Positions 3,234 to 8,763 of a stretch of 40,203 nucleotides of DNA are shown here, in pieces. The stretch lies in UHGV virus genome UHGV-1364111; one strand, given 5' to 3'. The translations under genes were made by a program, and so were the position numbers. Source of the DNA: a virus. Every line of letters begins with the position of its first letter. Position 1 is the stretch's first letter. The notes beneath the pieces were generated by a model, which ran no database searches, had not been told where the DNA came from, and was given only the letters and a program-made list of their open reading frames with translations.

Positions 3234-3270
3234 TATTACCTGCATGGTAATAAAGTTACTCAGGTGGTAA
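3234..3270. promoter_or_regulatory. two tandem operator-like palindromes upstream of terS
   Basis: TATTACC-tgca-TGGTAATA (3234-3252, TTACC-N5-GGTAA core 3236-3250) and TTACT-caggt-GGTAA (3256-3270). Centres are 20 bp apart. Confidence 0.4.
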
Positions 3271-3869
3271 TGATGCCCGCGACACCAAAAACCCACAAAC
3301 GCAAATCAACGCAATATAAACCTCTTACAGCGATGCAGGAGGCTTACTGCCAGTCCTACATTAAGACACCCGAAAACCAGTCTCAGGCAGCGATTGACGC
3401 AGGATTTTCGCCTAATACGGCAGCCGTCAAAGCCAGCGTGATGATGCGAGACGAAAGAATCCAGAAACGAATCGCTGAGCTGATGGAGGAGCGCAATAGG
3501 CGTATGCGCGTCAGCGCTGATTACGTACTCATGCGACTGGTGGAGATCGACCAGATGGATGTGATCGACATACTCAACGATGATATGAGTATCAAACCGG
3601 TTTCGGAATGGCCTAAGGTCTGGCGCCAGTATCTTACCGGTTTCGAACTGGCCGATATGTTTGAAGGTCGTGGCGACGAGAAAGAACTGGTTGGCATCCT
3701 CAAAAAAATCAAATGGCCGGACAAGGTGAAGAACCTCGAGTTGATTGGTAAGCACGTCGACGTCAACGCGTTCAAAGAGCGCCTGGAGGTTTCCGGTACC
3801 GTCACCATTGCCGACCGCATGGCAGCCGCGCGCCGCCGCGTCAAAGAGCAGGCTGGTGGTGAAGAATGA
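3264..3869 (+). CDS. terS: terminase small subunit
   Basis: About 200-aa protein immediately upstream of, and ATGA-coupled to, the large terminase. Basic N-terminus and a helix-turn-helix-like segment QAAIDAGFSPNTAAVKASVM typical of TerS. Start ambiguous (GTG 3264, ATG 3270 or 3273). Confidence 0.65.
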   Translation: MVMMPATPKTHKRKSTQYKPLTAMQEAYCQSYIKTPENQSQAAIDAGFSPNTAAVKASVMMRDERIQKRIAELMEERNRRMRVSADYVLMRLVEIDQMDVIDILNDDMSIKPVSEWPKVWRQYLTGFELADMFEGRGDEKELVGILKKIKWPDKVKNLELIGKHVDVNAFKERLEVSGTVTIADRMAAARRRVKEQAGGEE

Positions 3870-5341
3870 CAGCCGCAGCCATGTCGCCGGAAGAGCAGCT
3901 CGTCGAGGATATCGCCTCGTTCACGTATGACCCGCTGGGCTATGCGCTTTATGCGTTCCCGTGGGGCGAAGATGGCACAGAGCTGGCACACGCCACCGGG
4001 CCGAGAAAGTGGCAGGCTAATGCATTCCGCGAGATACGCGATCACCTCCAGAACCCCGCGACGCGTCACCAGCCGCTGATGCTGGCCCGCGCATCCGGCC
4101 ACGGTATCGGCAAATCCGCTTTCATCTCGATGCTCATCAACTGGGGCATGTCCACCTGCGAGGACTGCAAGGTGGTGGTTACCGCCAACACCGACAACCA
4201 GCTGCGCACCAAGACCTGGCCGGAAATCATCAAATGGTCGAACCTGGCCATAACGAAAGAGTGGTTCACCTGCACCGCCACGGCGATGTACAGCAACGAT
4301 CCTGGGCACGATAAACGCTGGCGCGCTGACGCAATCCCGTGGTCTGAGCACAACACCGAAGCGTTCGCTGGCCTGCACAACGAGCGCAAGCGCATCATCG
4401 TGGTATTCGATGAAGCGTCCAATATTGCCGATCTGGTGTGGGAGGTTGCCGAAGGTGCGCTGACGGATGAAGACACAGAAATCATCTGGGTGGCGTTCGG
4501 GAACCCGACGCGCAACACCGGGCGTTTCCGCGAATGCTTCCGAAAATATAAACACCGCTGGAAGTGTGCGCAGATTGACAGCCGTACTGTCGAAGGCACG
4601 AATAAGCAGCAGCTCCAGAAATGGGTGGACGACTACGGCGAGGACAGCGACTTCGTGAAGGTCCGTGTGCGGGGGATCTTCCCTGACGCGTCAGAGCTTC
4701 AGTTTATACCGACCGGTCTCACTGACGAGGCGATGAAGCGCGTAGTGACCGCTGCACAGGTCGCGCACGCCCCGGTGATTATTGGCGTCGACCCGGCGTA
4801 TTCCGGCGTGGATGACGCGGTGATATACCTGCGCCAGGGGCTGCACAGCAAAGTGCTCTGGACCGGCAACAAGACCACCGACGATCTGATTATGGCGAAG
4901 CGCATCGCCGACTTTGAAGACCAGTACCAGGCTGATGCGGTATTCATCGACTTCGGTTACGGTACCGGGCTGAAGTCTATCGGTGACGGATGGGGCCGGA
5001 CATGGCAGCTAATCCCGTTCGGCGGCGGCTCGACCGACCCTCAGATGCTCAATAAGCGCGGCGAGATGTTCAACAGCTGCAAAACGTGGCTGAAGCTCGG
5101 CGGCGCGCTGGATGACCAGGAGACGGCGGATGATCTGTCGGCGGCAGAGTACAAAGTCAGGGTGGACGGGAAGATCGTCATTGAGCCGAAGGAAGATATC
5201 AAAGAGCGCTTAGGCCGTTCGCCTGGCAAGGGTGATGCGCTGCTGCTGACGTTTGCTTTCCCGGTCACGAAGCGCCTGCACATTCCAGGGCAGGAGAGTC
5301 AGCAAGGCAAGGCAGTTACAGAATATGACCCGTGGAAATAA
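3866..5341 (+). CDS. terL: terminase large subunit
   Basis: 491-aa protein with a Walker A-like ARASGHGIGKS, an ATPase acidic motif IIVVFDEAS and a C-terminal nuclease-like region. Position after terS. Confidence 0.85.
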   Translation: MTAAAMSPEEQLVEDIASFTYDPLGYALYAFPWGEDGTELAHATGPRKWQANAFREIRDHLQNPATRHQPLMLARASGHGIGKSAFISMLINWGMSTCEDCKVVVTANTDNQLRTKTWPEIIKWSNLAITKEWFTCTATAMYSNDPGHDKRWRADAIPWSEHNTEAFAGLHNERKRIIVVFDEASNIADLVWEVAEGALTDEDTEIIWVAFGNPTRNTGRFRECFRKYKHRWKCAQIDSRTVEGTNKQQLQKWVDDYGEDSDFVKVRVRGIFPDASELQFIPTGLTDEAMKRVVTAAQVAHAPVIIGVDPAYSGVDDAVIYLRQGLHSKVLWTGNKTTDDLIMAKRIADFEDQYQADAVFIDFGYGTGLKSIGDGWGRTWQLIPFGGGSTDPQMLNKRGEMFNSCKTWLKLGGALDDQETADDLSAAEYKVRVDGKIVIEPKEDIKERLGRSPGKGDALLLTFAFPVTKRLHIPGQESQQGKAVTEYDPWK

Positions 5342-5503
5342 CAAAGCTATTTCTGTAGCTTTGGATTTTTCAATGAAATAAATGGGCGCAGAATTGCGCT
5401 GGGTGTGCCGCAAGCAAATGCGTGGTAGTTGCGGATTATATTCAGTGTATTTCTATAAGATATTGATTTAGTTCCAGAATACATTATTGTCCTCTGGACA
5501 GAT

Positions 5504-5530
5504 AAAACAAAGCCCGCACATCGGCGGGCT
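5504..5530 (-). terminator. rho-independent terminator (minus strand) after the moron cassette
   Basis: AGCCCGC-acatcg-GCGGGCT stem, followed on the minus strand by UUUGUUUUAUC. Confidence 0.6.
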
Positions 5531-5573
5531 GATTGTGACATGTCACGGCGTTAAAAGCCGTCGAATTCGTCTT

Positions 5574-5969
5574 TCATTTCTCGCTCAGTTTCTGCTTCAG
5601 CAGATAACCTTCCAGCATCCAGATTTTATTCACCGCGTTTTCGCGGGCGATCTTGCGACCGATCTCCGGGTCGAAGTTTTCCTGGCTTGCGCACGCGCTC
5701 TCGCCGGTTACGGTGAATCCGTTGCGCAGCACCAGGACGCAGAACGTCAGCAGAGAAAGTGATTCGTGCGGCTGGTAGTTTACCTCTCCGCCAGTATGTT
5801 TCGCTTTTATGGCTACGCCAAAGGCACCATCTTCTGCTGTGAAATATGCCTCCTGAGCAATAATACTTTCGATATGGTCTGGCGTAACGCGCGGAGCGGT
5901 TAAGCCTTTGGCCTGAATTTCCTGCTCGATAGCCAAGCAGGATGGTGCTGGAGATGCGGTTGATAACAT
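5574..5969 (-). CDS. phage protein, possibly N4 Gp49/Sf6 gene 66-like family
   Basis: 131-aa ORF. Segment GFTVTGESACASQENFDPEIGRKIARENAVNKIWMLEGYLL matches my memory of the Gp49/gene66 family signature. Assignment tentative. Confidence 0.4.
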   Translation of the reverse strand: MLSTASPAPSCLAIEQEIQAKGLTAPRVTPDHIESIIAQEAYFTAEDGAFGVAIKAKHTGGEVNYQPHESLSLLTFCVLVLRNGFTVTGESACASQENFDPEIGRKIARENAVNKIWMLEGYLLKQKLSEK

Positions 5970-5980
5970 GGTTGCTTACC

Positions 5981-6166
5981 TCAAAAAGTAATCTTATCAA
6001 ATGCGGCGTTGATCGCTTCTGCACTGCGTTCAGCGTCGTTTTTATCAACGAACGACTGACGGCCAAGAACCTCTGCCAGGCACTGCAACTTCGTGTGGTA
6101 GAGGTTCTCGCGGCGAATCTCTTCGGCAGGAGATTGTTTCTGAACATTAACGACTGTCTGGCTCAT
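5981..6166 (-). CDS. small hypothetical protein (61 aa from ATG 6166; ORF track extends to GTG 6175)
   Basis: SD AAGGTG 6 nt upstream of the ATG. 11-bp gap to the downstream 131-aa gene. No recognisable motif. Confidence 0.4.
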   Translation of the reverse strand: MSQTVVNVQKQSPAEEIRRENLYHTKLQCLAEVLGRQSFVDKNDAERSAEAINAAFDKITF

Positions 6167-6178
6167 GATTTTCACCTT

Positions 6179-6204
6179 AAAAAAATGCCCGGGCGAACCG
6201 GGCG
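6179..6204 (-). terminator. intrinsic terminator hairpin immediately 5' of the 61-aa gene SD (minus strand)
   Basis: Minus-strand RNA: GCCCGG-uucgc-CCGGGC, then U7, then AAGGUG and AUG. Confidence 0.55.
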
Positions 6205-6283
6205 AACTGGAAGCAATGACTACGGAGTGCCTTCCTTGGCAGTTACGGGTTTACAGCGCAACGTCATCGGGATGGCGTTCTGC

Positions 6284-6327
6284 TGTAAAAAGGGCGGTGG
6301 TCAGAAGTGGGAGCAACTGCCACCGCC
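6284..6327 (-). terminator. second minus-strand intrinsic terminator
   Basis: GGCGGTGG ... CCACCGCC 8-bp stem with a 19-nt loop, followed on the minus strand by CUUUUUAC. Confidence 0.5.
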
Positions 6328-6329
6328 AA

Positions 6330-6760
6330 AACTACACGCATTGCCTGGTACTGCCGTATCACGGTCCTAAGGCGTGATTGGGTTGTGGTGGCCGGTGCGC
6401 CGGCGATAGCGTTTGTCGCATGCTAATAGCAACTTTCACCACAACGGAAAGAGCACTGCATGGTTTTACCATTACATCCGAGGATTTATCTGGTGTAGTC
6501 AATGCTCTTACCTGTTATGGCCTCGTCTCTTCCGAGGTGTCACACCGTATCGCCACGATGGTGAGTCGTCATGTCCGTGCATACCGAGAGCATTGACTTG
6601 CACATTCCGGCTACCTGCTCGGGGGAAGTAGCATCAAGGACCCCGCCAGACCGCTGCGACACATGTGCCATATGCCGTACTGCTCACACCTGGAAGCGCA
6701 CTCACCAGTTTTGATTTAGCGACAAGACCTCACCGAACCGATATCAAAGTGCGCTTTCAT
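6330..6760 (-). other. structured non-coding region (candidate leader or ncRNA, strand uncertain)
   Basis: No convincing ORF with an RBS in either strand. Multiple nested GC-rich stems, e.g. GTTGTGGTG...CACCACAAC enclosing GCCGG-tgcg-CCGGC. Ends at two tandem minus-strand terminators. Confidence 0.25.
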
Positions 6761-6766
6761 GTTGTG

Positions 6767-6781
6767 TTACCTGAAGGGTAA
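6767..6781. promoter_or_regulatory. operator-like palindrome TTACC-tgaag-GGTAA
   Basis: GTGTTACC tgaag GGTAATAAT between the non-coding region and the gene preceding portal. Confidence 0.35.
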
Positions 6782-6871
6782 TAATTACAGTCCATTATGT
6801 CAATACACTACGTAAAATAATCCGTATATGGTTAAATTGGTAATAATTTAATCGTGTGTGAGGTTATCGCT

Positions 6872-7078
6872 ATGTGTATCGGCAGCAAGCCATCAGTGCC
6901 AGCGGCACCAGAAGTTCAGGCCGCACCTCAGGAGCAGGACGCCGCTGTTGTCAGTGCGCGCGATGACGAAGAGCGCCGCCGCCGTGCTGCCGCCGGTCGT
7001 AACTCGACCATGCTCACCGGTGCCCAGGGCGACACTTCCGCCGCAAATACCAGCGGTAAAACGCTGCTCGGTCAGTAA
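6872..7078 (+). CDS. small Ala/Pro/Arg-rich hypothetical protein (68 aa)
   Basis: ATG at 6872 with GAGGT 7 nt upstream. Low-complexity sequence. ORF track lists 6854 as the start. Confidence 0.35.
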   Translation: MCIGSKPSVPAAPEVQAAPQEQDAAVVSARDDEERRRRAAAGRNSTMLTGAQGDTSAANTSGKTLLGQ

Positions 7079-7092
7079 CGGAGCGCGCAGAG

Positions 7093-8763
7093 ATGGTGGA
7101 AACCGAAAAAGAGCGGCTGCTGAAGCAGCTTGCACAGCTGAAGAGTGAGCGCACATCGTTTGAGCCGCACTGGCGCGACCTGAGCGACTTTATCAATCCG
7201 CGCGGTTCCCGATTCCTGCCGTCTGACGTTAACCGTGACGATCGCCGCAACACCAAGATTGTTGACCCTACCGGCTCACTCGCTCAGCGCATTCTCGCCA
7301 GCGGCATGATGTCCGGCATCACCAGTCCGGCCCGTCCGTGGTTCAAACTGGCAACGCCTGACCCTGACATGATGGATTACGGCCCTGTGAAGGTCTGGCT
7401 GGAAGTCGTGCAGCGCCGCATGAACGAAGTGTTCAACAAGTCGAACCTTTACCAGTCTCTTCCTGTGATGTACGCCAGTCTGGGTACTTTCGGTACCGCC
7501 GCTATGGCTGTGCTGGAAGATGACCAGGACGTGATCCGCACAATGCCTTTCCCGATTGGCAGCTACTACCTGGCGAACAGCCCGCGCGGCAGTGTCGATA
7601 CCTCTTTCCGCCAGTTCTCCATGACCGTGCGTCAACTGGTGCAGGAGTTTGGTCTGGACAACGTGAGCACATCCGTTAAGGGCATGTGGAAAAACGGCAC
7701 GTATGAAGCGTGGATCGAGGTTAACCACTGCATCACGCCAAACATCAACCGCGACAGCGGAAAGATGGATAGTAAGAACAAGCCGTTCCGCTCTGTGTAC
7801 TTCGAGACCGGTGGCGACTCCGACAAGCTGCTGCGTGAATCTGGTTTCGACGAATTCCCGATCCTGGCTCCGCGCTGGGAAGTTAACGGCGAAGACGTTT
7901 ATGCGTCCTCCTGCCCTGGCATGCTGGCGCTGGGCCAGGTTAAAGCGCTTCAGGTTGAGCAGAAACGTAAAGCTCAGCTGATCGACAAGGCCACTAACCC
8001 GCCGATGGTCGCGCCGACGTCGCTGAAGAATCAGCGAGTCTCCCTGCTACCTGGTGACGTGACCTATCTCGACGTGCTGAGCGGTCAGGACGGTTTCAAG
8101 CCTGCTTACCTGGTCAACCCGAATACTGCAGATCTGCTGGCTGATATTCAGGACACCCGGCAGACCATCAACAGCGCCTACTTTGTCGACCTCTTCATGA
8201 TGCTGCAGAACATCAACACCCGCTCTATGCCGGTGGAAGCAGTGATCGAGATGAAGGAAGAAAAGCTGCTGATGCTTGGCCCGGTACTGGAACGCCTGAA
8301 CGACGAGGCTCTCAACCCGCTTATCGACCGCGTGTTCTCCATCATGGCGCGCAAGAACATGCTTCCTCCTCCGCCGGACGTTATGCAGGGAATGCCACTG
8401 CGCATCGAGTACATCTCCGTTATGGCGCAGGCGCAGAAATCTATCGGCCTCACCAGCCTGTCGCAGACCGTTGGCTTTATCGGCCAACTCGCACAGTTCA
8501 AACCTGAAGCGCTCGACAAGCTCGATGTGGATCAGGCTATCGACGCGTTCTCTGAAATGTCCGGCGTATCGCCAACCGTCATCGTTCCTCAGGAGCAGGT
8601 GCAGGGTATTCGCCAGGACAGAGCCAAACAGCAGCAGGCAGCTCAGGCAATGGCTATGGGTCAGGCCGCGGCGCAGGGGGCGAAAACGCTCAGCGAGACT
8701 CAGACCGCAGACCCTAGCGCACTGACTGCCATCACCAACGCAGCAGGAGCGCCGCAGCAATGA
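7093..8763 (+). CDS. portal (head-to-tail connector) protein, T7 gp8-like
   Basis: 556 aa. C-terminal Gln/Ala-rich tail ...RAKQQQAAQAMAMGQAAAQGAK resembles the T7 gp8 C-terminus (QQKMAQQSMQMGMDNGAAALAQG). Position between terminase and scaffold. Confidence 0.75.
   Translation: MVETEKERLLKQLAQLKSERTSFEPHWRDLSDFINPRGSRFLPSDVNRDDRRNTKIVDPTGSLAQRILASGMMSGITSPARPWFKLATPDPDMMDYGPVKVWLEVVQRRMNEVFNKSNLYQSLPVMYASLGTFGTAAMAVLEDDQDVIRTMPFPIGSYYLANSPRGSVDTSFRQFSMTVRQLVQEFGLDNVSTSVKGMWKNGTYEAWIEVNHCITPNINRDSGKMDSKNKPFRSVYFETGGDSDKLLRESGFDEFPILAPRWEVNGEDVYASSCPGMLALGQVKALQVEQKRKAQLIDKATNPPMVAPTSLKNQRVSLLPGDVTYLDVLSGQDGFKPAYLVNPNTADLLADIQDTRQTINSAYFVDLFMMLQNINTRSMPVEAVIEMKEEKLLMLGPVLERLNDEALNPLIDRVFSIMARKNMLPPPPDVMQGMPLRIEYISVMAQAQKSIGLTSLSQTVGFIGQLAQFKPEALDKLDVDQAIDAFSEMSGVSPTVIVPQEQVQGIRQDRAKQQQAAQAMAMGQAAAQGAKTLSETQTADPSALTAITNAAGAPQQ

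Follow-up and report, generated by a model that had tools for sequence, protein, structure and literature searches.

What purpose is served by a unit that runs against the structural genes of a temperate phage and opens with some 590 nt of non-coding RNA? The question is raised by the virus genome UHGV-1364111, a stretch of 40,203 nucleotides (the window), in which the gap between the genes terL and portal holds, on the minus strand, a long non-coding leader, two terminators and two small genes. The window is close to a full genome of an epsilon15/phiV10-like temperate podovirus of the genus Uetakevirus, with Enterobacter phage BUCT554 as its nearest record, and in relatives, too, an opposite-strand unit occupies the gap from terL to gp3/portal. 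An earlier note on this DNA had read the leader as a riboswitch- or attenuator-type element, or as a small RNA (sRNA) gene read into a regulated cassette. We find that the leader is a mosaic of separable RNA modules common to relatives of the phage. One of these, a pseudoknotted RNA that we call module X, appears to be an undescribed RNA family. Our overall interpretation, to which we assign a probability of roughly 0.7, is that of an early, probably repressor-controlled array of non-coding RNAs ahead of exchangeable anti-defence cargo.

Module X carries much of this argument. Its proposed structure was evaluated in 45 non-redundant representatives, with slid pairing partners and 500 shuffles as controls. 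Pairing was found in 89% of cells, versus 32-43% with slid partners, and the observed covariation score was reached by none of the 500 shuffles. Compensatory changes occur in every helix: A-U/G-C exchanges in helix P1 (18 sequences), C-G/U-A exchanges in P2 (12 sequences), C-G/A-U exchanges in helix B (4 sequences), and changes at three of the four pairs of helix A and four of the five pairs of P6. Helix B joins the loop of helix A to a downstream GGUG and makes with helix A an H-type pseudoknot. Because its U-G pairs are invariant, the structure forms on the cassette strand only. A further long-range stem (P3), which closes the 3' domain of X in the fold of the window, is 54% paired across relatives and is not claimed here; the 'P5' hairpin proposed by RNAalifold was replaced by helix A and the pseudoknot after inspection of the covariation. 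Resemblances of the 3' domain to a tRNA-like cloverleaf, or to selC, 6S RNA or the fluoride riboswitch, were dropped for want of a supporting model.

Scanning the window against Rfam (cmscan, 4227 families), a check that the earlier note had proposed, yielded no family for X and only a sub-threshold match to DicF elsewhere in the leader. At E<=1 there was no Rfam match for X in the window or in phage P1, and none for X in 14 relatives. X is un-annotated in all records examined, that of phage P1 included. A second proposed check, covariation in related phages, was borne out by compensatory changes in X, in both terminators and in the hairpins of the second sRNA described below.

Module X is widespread among Enterobacterales. 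The exact 19-nt string GGUAGCCGGAAUGUGCAAG, an invariant stretch of X, is found in more than 120 IMG/VR contigs and in 24 species-representative genomes, all from Enterobacterales except two bins of metagenome-assembled genomes. By blastn, X matches 1985 of 5426 complete E. coli genomes, with at least 80% of its length covered in 505 of them, and no annotation lies beneath the E. coli matches listed. Its range takes in lambdoid early-left (PL) leaders, the P1 ban operon, Uetakevirus, the P1-like phage D6 and the Lastavirus SopranoGao. Of its 153 distinct contexts, the Uetakevirus gap accounts for about 40; in about 70, X comes directly after a cI-type repressor gene of the same strand. In Stx2a_1447 and mEp390 the cI stop is followed by a terminator, the operator/promoter and then X, 30-45 nt past the inferred start, which indicates that X heads the PL transcript. 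The PL leader of lambdoid Stx2a_1447 repeats the order found here (X, slot, first terminator, second terminator), the second terminator preceding the first ORF (open reading frame). In phage P1 (NC_005856), X lies un-annotated at 71023-71196 (108 bits) between trnI and ban, inside the C1-controlled ban operon, for which the record annotates a 'dicF-like region' and tRNAs. There, a mini-ORF of 14 codons comes after X (within 71023-71294), and its stop overlaps the ATG of ban. As a separate observation in Stx2a_1447 (L010 130-318), Rfam finds C4 antisense RNA (83.6 bits) and IsrK (67 bits) beside an antirepressor gene.

The rest of the leader is built in the same modular way. Positions 6170-6860 (691 nt) can be aligned over their whole length with phiV10-type phages, at only about 68% identity; with epsilon15/SPN1S types the identity is 80-90%, in blocks. 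The minus-strand fold of the whole region has a z-score of -3.2 relative to shuffles, and three sub-elements score -2.6 to -2.9. The earlier note had rightly described a long structured non-coding stretch, which extends, from the inferred start, about 482 nt to the first terminator (T1) and about 590 nt to the second (T2) and folds better than shuffles. It had also called the region GC-rich, which does not hold relative to the surroundings (0.50-0.58 versus 0.58-0.61 in the flanks), and had treated as a single leader what are several independent conserved RNA modules. Its rejection of tandem repeats and of a ToxI-type RNA was sound: TRF reports only trivial two-copy repeats, one of which is the T2 stem, and thus no type III toxin-antitoxin repeat array upstream of the ORFs. 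As for a protein gene that relatives would carry intact and the window in frameshifted form, the lengths vary arbitrarily and whole blocks are exchanged between relatives, and the leader thus does not behave like a frameshifted gene.

Upstream of X in the direction of transcription is hairpin H, which is kept in most relatives. The epsilon15 record annotates a stretch overlapping it as 'RNaseIII', and hairpin H is a candidate RNase III processing site. In mEp390, hairpin H takes other positions in the array and, with a T1-like sRNA, comes after X in shuffled order. Some relatives (L001, L003, L004 at ~2850-2990, and L005) carry between the operator and H an extra structured insert of about 130 nt (alignment columns 107-236), which is absent from the window and appears to be another portable RNA module. 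Downstream of X, constant arms (GUUGUGG ... CCACAAC-C-CCA) bound a tRNA slot across the aligned relatives. In phiV10-, SPN1S- and KPC3phi13.3-type phages the slot holds a real tRNA-Arg(UCU) on the cassette strand (68-73 bits), and elsewhere other inserts. The window retains a 65-nt remnant in which the acceptor-like stem (GUUGUGGUG/CACCACAAC) encloses two unrelated hairpins with no D or T arm (fold z-score -2.9), and neither ARAGORN nor Rfam RF00005 finds a tRNA in the window. More generally, a tRNA lies on the same strand within 600 nt at 48 of 157 X loci, with tRNA-Arg(UCU) 70-133 nt downstream of X at 28 of them and tRNA(CAU) 15 nt upstream at 18. At the aligned slot of two E. coli prophages (L004 3280-3392 and L005 3540-3654) we observed a tRNA-like RNA of 113-115 nt. 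Its acceptor, D and T arms are ordinary and its CCA is encoded, but the 'anticodon' loop has 11 nt and there is a long extra arm; it is called a pseudogenic tRNA-Gly by PGAP, and may be either an unusual working tRNA or a decoy.

This arrangement weighs on two rival explanations. In the first, the structured region would sense a ligand or translation and switch the terminators for the two ORFs behind it, as the earlier note had suggested. In its favour, a conserved pseudoknotted 5' RNA whose junction nucleotides are invariant stands upstream of the terminators and genes, and the region folds more stably than shuffles. No Rfam aptamer is matched at E<=1, however, and X lies 190-340 nt upstream of the terminators; the 190 nt between X and T1 hold a tRNA gene in relatives. 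What follows X may be a tRNA, an ORF start, a hairpin or ban, and there is neither a fixed expression platform nor a conserved competing terminator/antiterminator pairing. No leader peptide precedes T1 or T2, and the terminators behave as the 3' ends of sRNAs (see below). Since X is without a fixed downstream partner, it is not a classical riboswitch, and we regard control of this kind as very improbable.

In the second, the leader would be the decayed remains of a tRNA island, kept as a recombination 'linker' for swapping cargo and functional as RNA only in its terminators. The tRNA is indeed decayed in the window, and the modules are shuffled among phages. In one contig (L029 3998-4959), two same-strand copies of X, the second degenerate, flank an opposite-strand membrane-protein ORF downstream of cI, and X may serve there as a recombination anchor for insertions. 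Mere linker DNA would not be expected to show compensatory changes that keep five helices of X at 89% pairing, strand-specific invariant G-U pairs, retention of X across lambdoid, P1-like, Uetakevirus and Lastavirus genomes, or sRNAs whose EPEC homologues are bound by Hfq. We consider this explanation highly unlikely.

The most conserved stretch of the leader is the block 6352-6179, which comprises two predicted tandem sRNAs, each ending in a terminator. The earlier note had placed two intrinsic terminators here with the Shine-Dalgarno (SD) sequence and ATG directly behind the second, and both are present (6327-6287 and 6203-6179). In T1, a G-C-rich outer stem of 8 bp encloses a small hairpin and is followed by CUUUUU; the terminator scanner missed T1 because its loop is long. 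Immediately behind T2 come AAGGUG (6178-6173) and the ATG (6166). Among 32 variants, T1, the sRNA2 hairpins and T2 are all kept, with compensatory changes. Both sRNAs have the intrinsic terminator and long U-tail of Hfq-dependent sRNAs (CUUUUU at T1, AU7 at T2), and neither inspection of the sequence nor a promoter scan revealed a promoter-like site between T1 and the ATG.

A homologous leader in prophage PP10 of enteropathogenic E. coli (EPEC) E2348/69 (L004) connects these terminators to published data on Hfq-bound RNAs. With RIL-seq (in which interacting RNAs are ligated and then sequenced) on Hfq, an EPEC-unique sRNA candidate, E2348C_2757.EST5UTR, was reported at NC_011601 2837269-2837365(+), upstream of and overlapping E2348C_2757, together with a second interacting RNA that ends at 2837266 (candidate E2348C_ncR36.E2348C_2757.IGR). 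Both are always second in the Hfq chimeras, in 5-6 interactions (PMC8550237). The always-second position is a signature of Hfq sRNAs. We located the U-tracts of the E2348/69 leader and found that T1 ends at 2837265/6 and T2 at 2837363/4; the RNA2 ends of the chimeras, 2837266 in those with lpp and bfpP and 2837363-5 in those with cfa and perC, thus sit exactly on T1 and T2. The two terminators of the window are accordingly best read as the predicted 3' ends of tandem Hfq-type sRNAs, with Hfq binding extrapolated from the E2348/69 homologues. The suggestion of an sRNA gene read into a regulated cassette was thus essentially right, with the cargo directly behind the second sRNA. The match of sRNA1 to the Rfam DicF model (RF00039; 22 bits, E 0.085, at 6292-6340 on the minus strand) is below the gathering score of 48, which is why we do not class it as DicF; none of the 14 relatives reached that score, and the 'dicF-like region' of phage P1 has no Rfam DicF match at E<=1. 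The EPEC sRNA PasB was considered on account of its location 'inside a structural operon' and rejected, as it belongs to a different prophage, PP6 (1466261-1466343).

What sets this array in motion is suggested by its promoter. The -35 TTGAC and the spacing are invariant, and the -10 TACCCT is conserved, in nine aligned Uetakevirus relatives; the consensus scanner missed the promoter because its -10 matches at only three of six positions. Transcription would start near 6768. Overlapping both the -10 and this start site is a palindrome (TTACCTGAAGGGTAA) that is likewise invariant in the alignment of relatives. Its pattern, TTACC-N5-GGTAA, has 12 occurrences in the window where 0.48 would be expected (positions 3236, 3256, 6767, 23377, 28485, 30645, 35932, 35994, 36712, 36760, 39607 and 39669). 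Four of the sites surround a helix-turn-helix (HTH) repressor gene (36066-36656, Pfam HTH_3): two lie between it and a divergent cro-like gene and two just downstream of it. Nearly all of the remaining sites are at other gene boundaries, including two copies just upstream of terS. The homologous site in the epsilon15 GenBank record is annotated 'repressor; lysogeny'. This distribution suggests that many promoters answer to one regulator, in the manner of the operators of P1 C1 or the stoperators of L5. From such a dispersed-operator scheme, as with P1 C1, we infer an early repressible promoter, and the cassette promoter is probably under repressor control. Between this promoter and portal lies a plus-strand ORF (6854-7078, 73-74 amino acids, phrog_831, no Pfam match) that is a homologue of epsilon15 gp3; its start is inside the conserved divergent promoter region.

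The cargo behind the array comprises the two minus-strand ORFs that the earlier note had identified, encoding 61 (6166-5981) and 131 (5969-5574) amino acids. Its guess of a Gp49/gene66-like product was correct for the latter, which matches PF13876 at 120 bits over the full domain (1-82/82) and aligns with PDB 9E4W, 'anti-CBASS 4' (E 0.006). PF13876 has been equated with Acb4, a family of tetrameric cyclic-dinucleotide sponges, and eight of eight homologues tested bound 3'3'-cGAMP (bioRxiv 10.1101/2024.12.30.630793). By family membership, the 131-residue protein is a probable cyclic-dinucleotide sponge against CBASS (cyclic-oligonucleotide-based antiphage signalling system). For the 61-residue protein, relaxing the cut-off to E<=10 brought no Pfam match, to PF21825 or any other family. 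Nothing informative came from PADLOC, PDB sequence or Foldseek searches, and no PDB fold matched significantly. Its 75 homologues are all enterobacterial (prophages), none with a Pfam domain, and an AlphaFold2 model (pLDDT 78.7) predicts a two-helix hairpin. It was tried as a Sequestin (PF21825) and failed on membership, the likeness consisting of size, helical fold and an Acb4 neighbour.

The cargo is exchanged at a fixed point. Across 43 loci with the conserved T2-SD junction, the cargo is Acb4-like in 10, of the 61-residue family in at least 9 and a Tad2 fusion in 4, and several others have small proteins of no assigned function; in Klebsiella phage ST512-KPC3phi13.3, a protein with a Tad2-like (anti-Thoeris) domain occupies the same slot. 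Other cargo at the junction includes proteins of 143 residues (phrog_18493, L004 3599-4030) and 138 residues (phrog_11227, L007 2184-2600) and, in L013, a 292-residue coiled-coil membrane protein. These three are candidate anti-defence or exclusion genes.

The earlier note had called the cassette a moron, and in part this stands, as it has its own promoter (6803-6775) and terminator (T3, 5530-5511). In the strict sense the term is doubtful, given the -10 inside an operator-type palindrome and the anti-defence cargo. A classical lysogenic-conversion moron would have a constitutive prophage promoter, its palindrome would not be a repressor operator, and the sRNAs and cargo would serve the lysogen. 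The variable cargo and the orientation opposite to the structural genes fit that description, as do the homologous sRNAs that pair in an EPEC lysogen with the host and virulence mRNAs lpp, cfa, perC and bfpP. Expression in the prophage is where the evidence divides: the operator over the -10 argues against it, yet the EPEC RIL-seq data show some expression in a lysogen. The palindrome is over-represented at gene boundaries, including the cI/cro-like intergenic region, X elsewhere lies in early repressor-controlled operons, and Acb4 and Tad2 sponges benefit an infecting phage rather than a lysogen. We judge a classical moron improbable. With its -10 in an operator of the immunity-region type and its anti-defence cargo, the cassette has more the look of a unit expressed early in the lytic cycle than of a gene for lysogenic conversion.

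In the model that we favour, 6803-5501 on the minus strand would form one transcription unit, driven by a conserved promoter with its -10 inside a repressor-type operator. Its non-coding RNA would be an array of independent modules, not a sensor, in the order hairpin H (a probable processing site), X, the tRNA-gene remnant and two tandem Hfq-type sRNAs. Polymerase passing both terminators would express the 61-residue protein and the Acb4-family sponge, which would mop up CBASS cyclic-nucleotide signals. Because T1 and T2 coincide with sRNA 3' ends and the cargo lies behind them, the terminators would both create the sRNAs and throttle the cargo, as in the dicF-dicB and P1 ban operons.

Several points weigh against this model. 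The -10 is weak (three of six consensus matches), and sRNA1 is below the Rfam threshold for DicF. An operator over the -10 predicts silence in a lysogen, whereas Hfq-bound sRNAs were recovered from the EPEC prophage under ordinary culture; repression may be leaky, that prophage may be deregulated, or another protein may bind the palindrome. T2 looks strong, with six G-C pairs and U7, and for this reason passive read-through might give very little cargo expression, unless termination is suppressed, for instance by X or a factor of the phage. Finally, the start site, the processing and the read-through are all deduced, and cyclic-nucleotide binding by the Acb4 homologue is a prediction.

Suppression of termination by X would make it a cis-acting processive antiterminator like HK022 put, folding on the nascent transcript, binding RNA polymerase and allowing read-through of T1 and T2 into the cargo, or, in lambdoid phages, into the early-left genes. 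Such a role is compatible with the model above. X is found 30-90 nt downstream of repressor-controlled early promoters in the window, Stx2a_1447 and mEp390, and some 70 of 153 contexts have it immediately behind a cI-like gene, at the putL/nutL position. Between X and the first ORF there are terminators, which no N-like ORF precedes, and the near-invariant unpaired nucleotides of X, combined with its restriction to Enterobacterales, suggest a conserved host partner. On the other hand, X resembles neither HK022 nor the annotated putL-like RNA of HK639 in sequence and is more than twice their size, and in P1 it comes after the dicF-like terminator and immediately ahead of ban, no terminator separating the two. 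Efficient antitermination would also not leave EPEC sRNA 3' ends at T1 and T2. A boxA-like GCTCTTTAACAA after X in some contigs points to coexisting N/Nus antitermination: in lambdoid contigs L091 and L035, perfect or near-perfect boxA-like sequences (GCTCTTTAACAA and GCTCTTTAATAA) stand directly 3' of X (alignment columns ~285-325), which hints at a nut site adjoining X. On balance, we think it unlikely that X is a cis antiterminator. The idea that we prefer, at somewhat less than even odds, is that X is a processed RNA that stands by itself and has a conserved host component as its binding partner, based on its shuffled order, its association with tRNAs and its near-invariant unpaired nucleotides; a cis-acting role in stabilization or processing, or a role at the DNA level, would account for the remainder.

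Table 1. Features of the terL-portal gap and its flanking genes in UHGV-1364111 (window coordinates)
Feature	Position	Strand	Basis or remarks
terL	3866-5341	+	Gene map
Minus-strand transcription unit	6803 to ~5501	-	Between terL and portal
T3, cassette-closing terminator before terL	5501..5530 (5530-5511 in the terminator scan)	-	7 pairs, 6 of them G-C; tail UUGUUUUAUC
131-residue Acb4-family protein (PF13876, N4 Gp49/Sf6 gene 66)	5574..5969	-	Pfam 120.1 bits, cut-off 27
SD AAGGUG and 61-residue ORF	5981..6178 (SD 6178-6173, ATG 6166, stop 5983-5981)	-	phrog_4846
T2	stem 6203-6187, A 6186, U7 6185-6179	-	Terminator scan; six G-C pairs
sRNA2	6179..6286	-	Three hairpins, the last being T2; most conserved part of the leader
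T1	stem 6327-6320/6300-6293, U-tract 6292-6287	-	Fold -23.4 kcal/mol, z -2.6
sRNA1 (5' end uncertain)	6287..6352	-	Ends in T1; DicF-like in shape only
Small hairpin AUCACGCCUUAGGACCGUGAU	6358..6378	-	Between tRNA slot and sRNA1; kept in 8 of 9 relatives
Decayed tRNA slot	6379..6445	-	9-bp acceptor-like stem GUUGUGGUG/CACCACAAC and CCA
Module X, pseudoknotted RNA, 160 nt	6519..6679	-	nhmmer E 1.7e-41; single copy in window
X helix P6	6537-6521	-	Covariation
X pseudoknot helix B	6563-6560/6546-6543	-	Covariation
X helix A	6569-6566/6558-6555	-	Covariation
X invariant 19-nt stretch GGUAGCCGGAAUGUGCAAG	6615-6597	-	Conservation
X helix P2	6653-6647 with 6617-6608	-	Covariation
X helix P1	6677-6657	-	Covariation
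Hairpin H, long, imperfect, ~82 nt	6685..6766	-	Fold -28.2 kcal/mol, z -2.9
Operator-type palindrome TTACCTGAAGGGTAA	6767..6781		Overlaps -10 and start site
Sigma-70-type promoter	6775..6803	-	-35 TTGACA 6803-6798, 17-nt spacer, -10 TACCCT 6780-6775
portal	7093-8763	+	Gene map

Known systems resemble parts of this locus. In the dicBF operon of the E. coli Qin prophage, a DicA-repressed promoter is followed by the DicF sRNA with its own terminator and then by dicB. Shared with the window are a repressor-controlled prophage promoter, a long untranslated or processed transcript, a terminator-ended Hfq-type sRNA inside the operon and a small accessory protein gene reached by read-through, along with the weak match of sRNA1 to the DicF model. 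Unlike dicBF, the window has two tandem sRNAs, X and a tRNA slot, its sRNA1 is not a DicF member, and its cargo is an anti-defence sponge (as predicted) rather than a division inhibitor. The ban leader of phage P1 (Oban/Op72, 'dicF-like region', trnA, trnT, trnI, ban) likewise combines a C1-controlled early promoter, a terminator-ended dicF-like region, tRNAs and X; it differs in that X, unannotated there, comes after the terminator and the tRNAs, and in that the payload is a DnaB-like helicase.

The put elements of HK022 and HK639 are structured RNAs that head an early operon behind a repressor-controlled promoter and ahead of terminators, with no protein factor encoded before them. A put element measures about 70 nt with two stems, whereas X has about 160 nt and a pseudoknot and is not always upstream of terminators. 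The X profile has no match in HK022 or HK639, the folds differ with no obvious structural similarity, and a literature search for put-like elements returned nothing relevant. With respect to SPO1 Acb4 (97 residues, PDB 9E4W), the 131-residue protein is a clear member of the Pfam family and aligns with the solved core, but it is about 35 residues longer at the N-terminus. The EPEC PP10 candidates (Pearl Mizrahi et al. 2021) are direct homologues of sRNA1 and sRNA2, with the same terminators at the same position before the cargo ATG, in a different prophage and with different cargo. They were listed as unnamed candidates without northern validation, and no connection was drawn there with anti-defence genes or with the RNA array that precedes them.

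The Acb4 family, prophage sRNAs and phage tRNAs are thus already known; new are X as a family, a modular leader common to three unrelated temperate phage groups, and the coupling of that leader to an anti-defence slot. X has matches in about a third of the complete E. coli genomes and heads early operons that decide lytic development. More tentatively, X may be a phage RNA of a new class, one that binds to some machine conserved in enterobacteria and is portable at the heads of early operons in lambdoid, P1-like and epsilon15-like phages. That machine could be RNA polymerase, in which case X would add a third type to the RNA antiterminators, structurally unrelated to the others; or it could be a component of the translation, tRNA or defence machinery, for which X would be an early RNA decoy. 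Three subjects that are mostly treated separately meet at this locus: anti-defence sponges (Acb4 and Tad2), phage tRNA genes, and prophage sRNAs with links into host and virulence networks. Its T2-SD junction looks like a conserved docking site for the exchange of anti-defence cargo, and as such could help to find new anti-defence genes, for example those of the 61-residue protein and of the 143-, 138- and 292-residue cargos.

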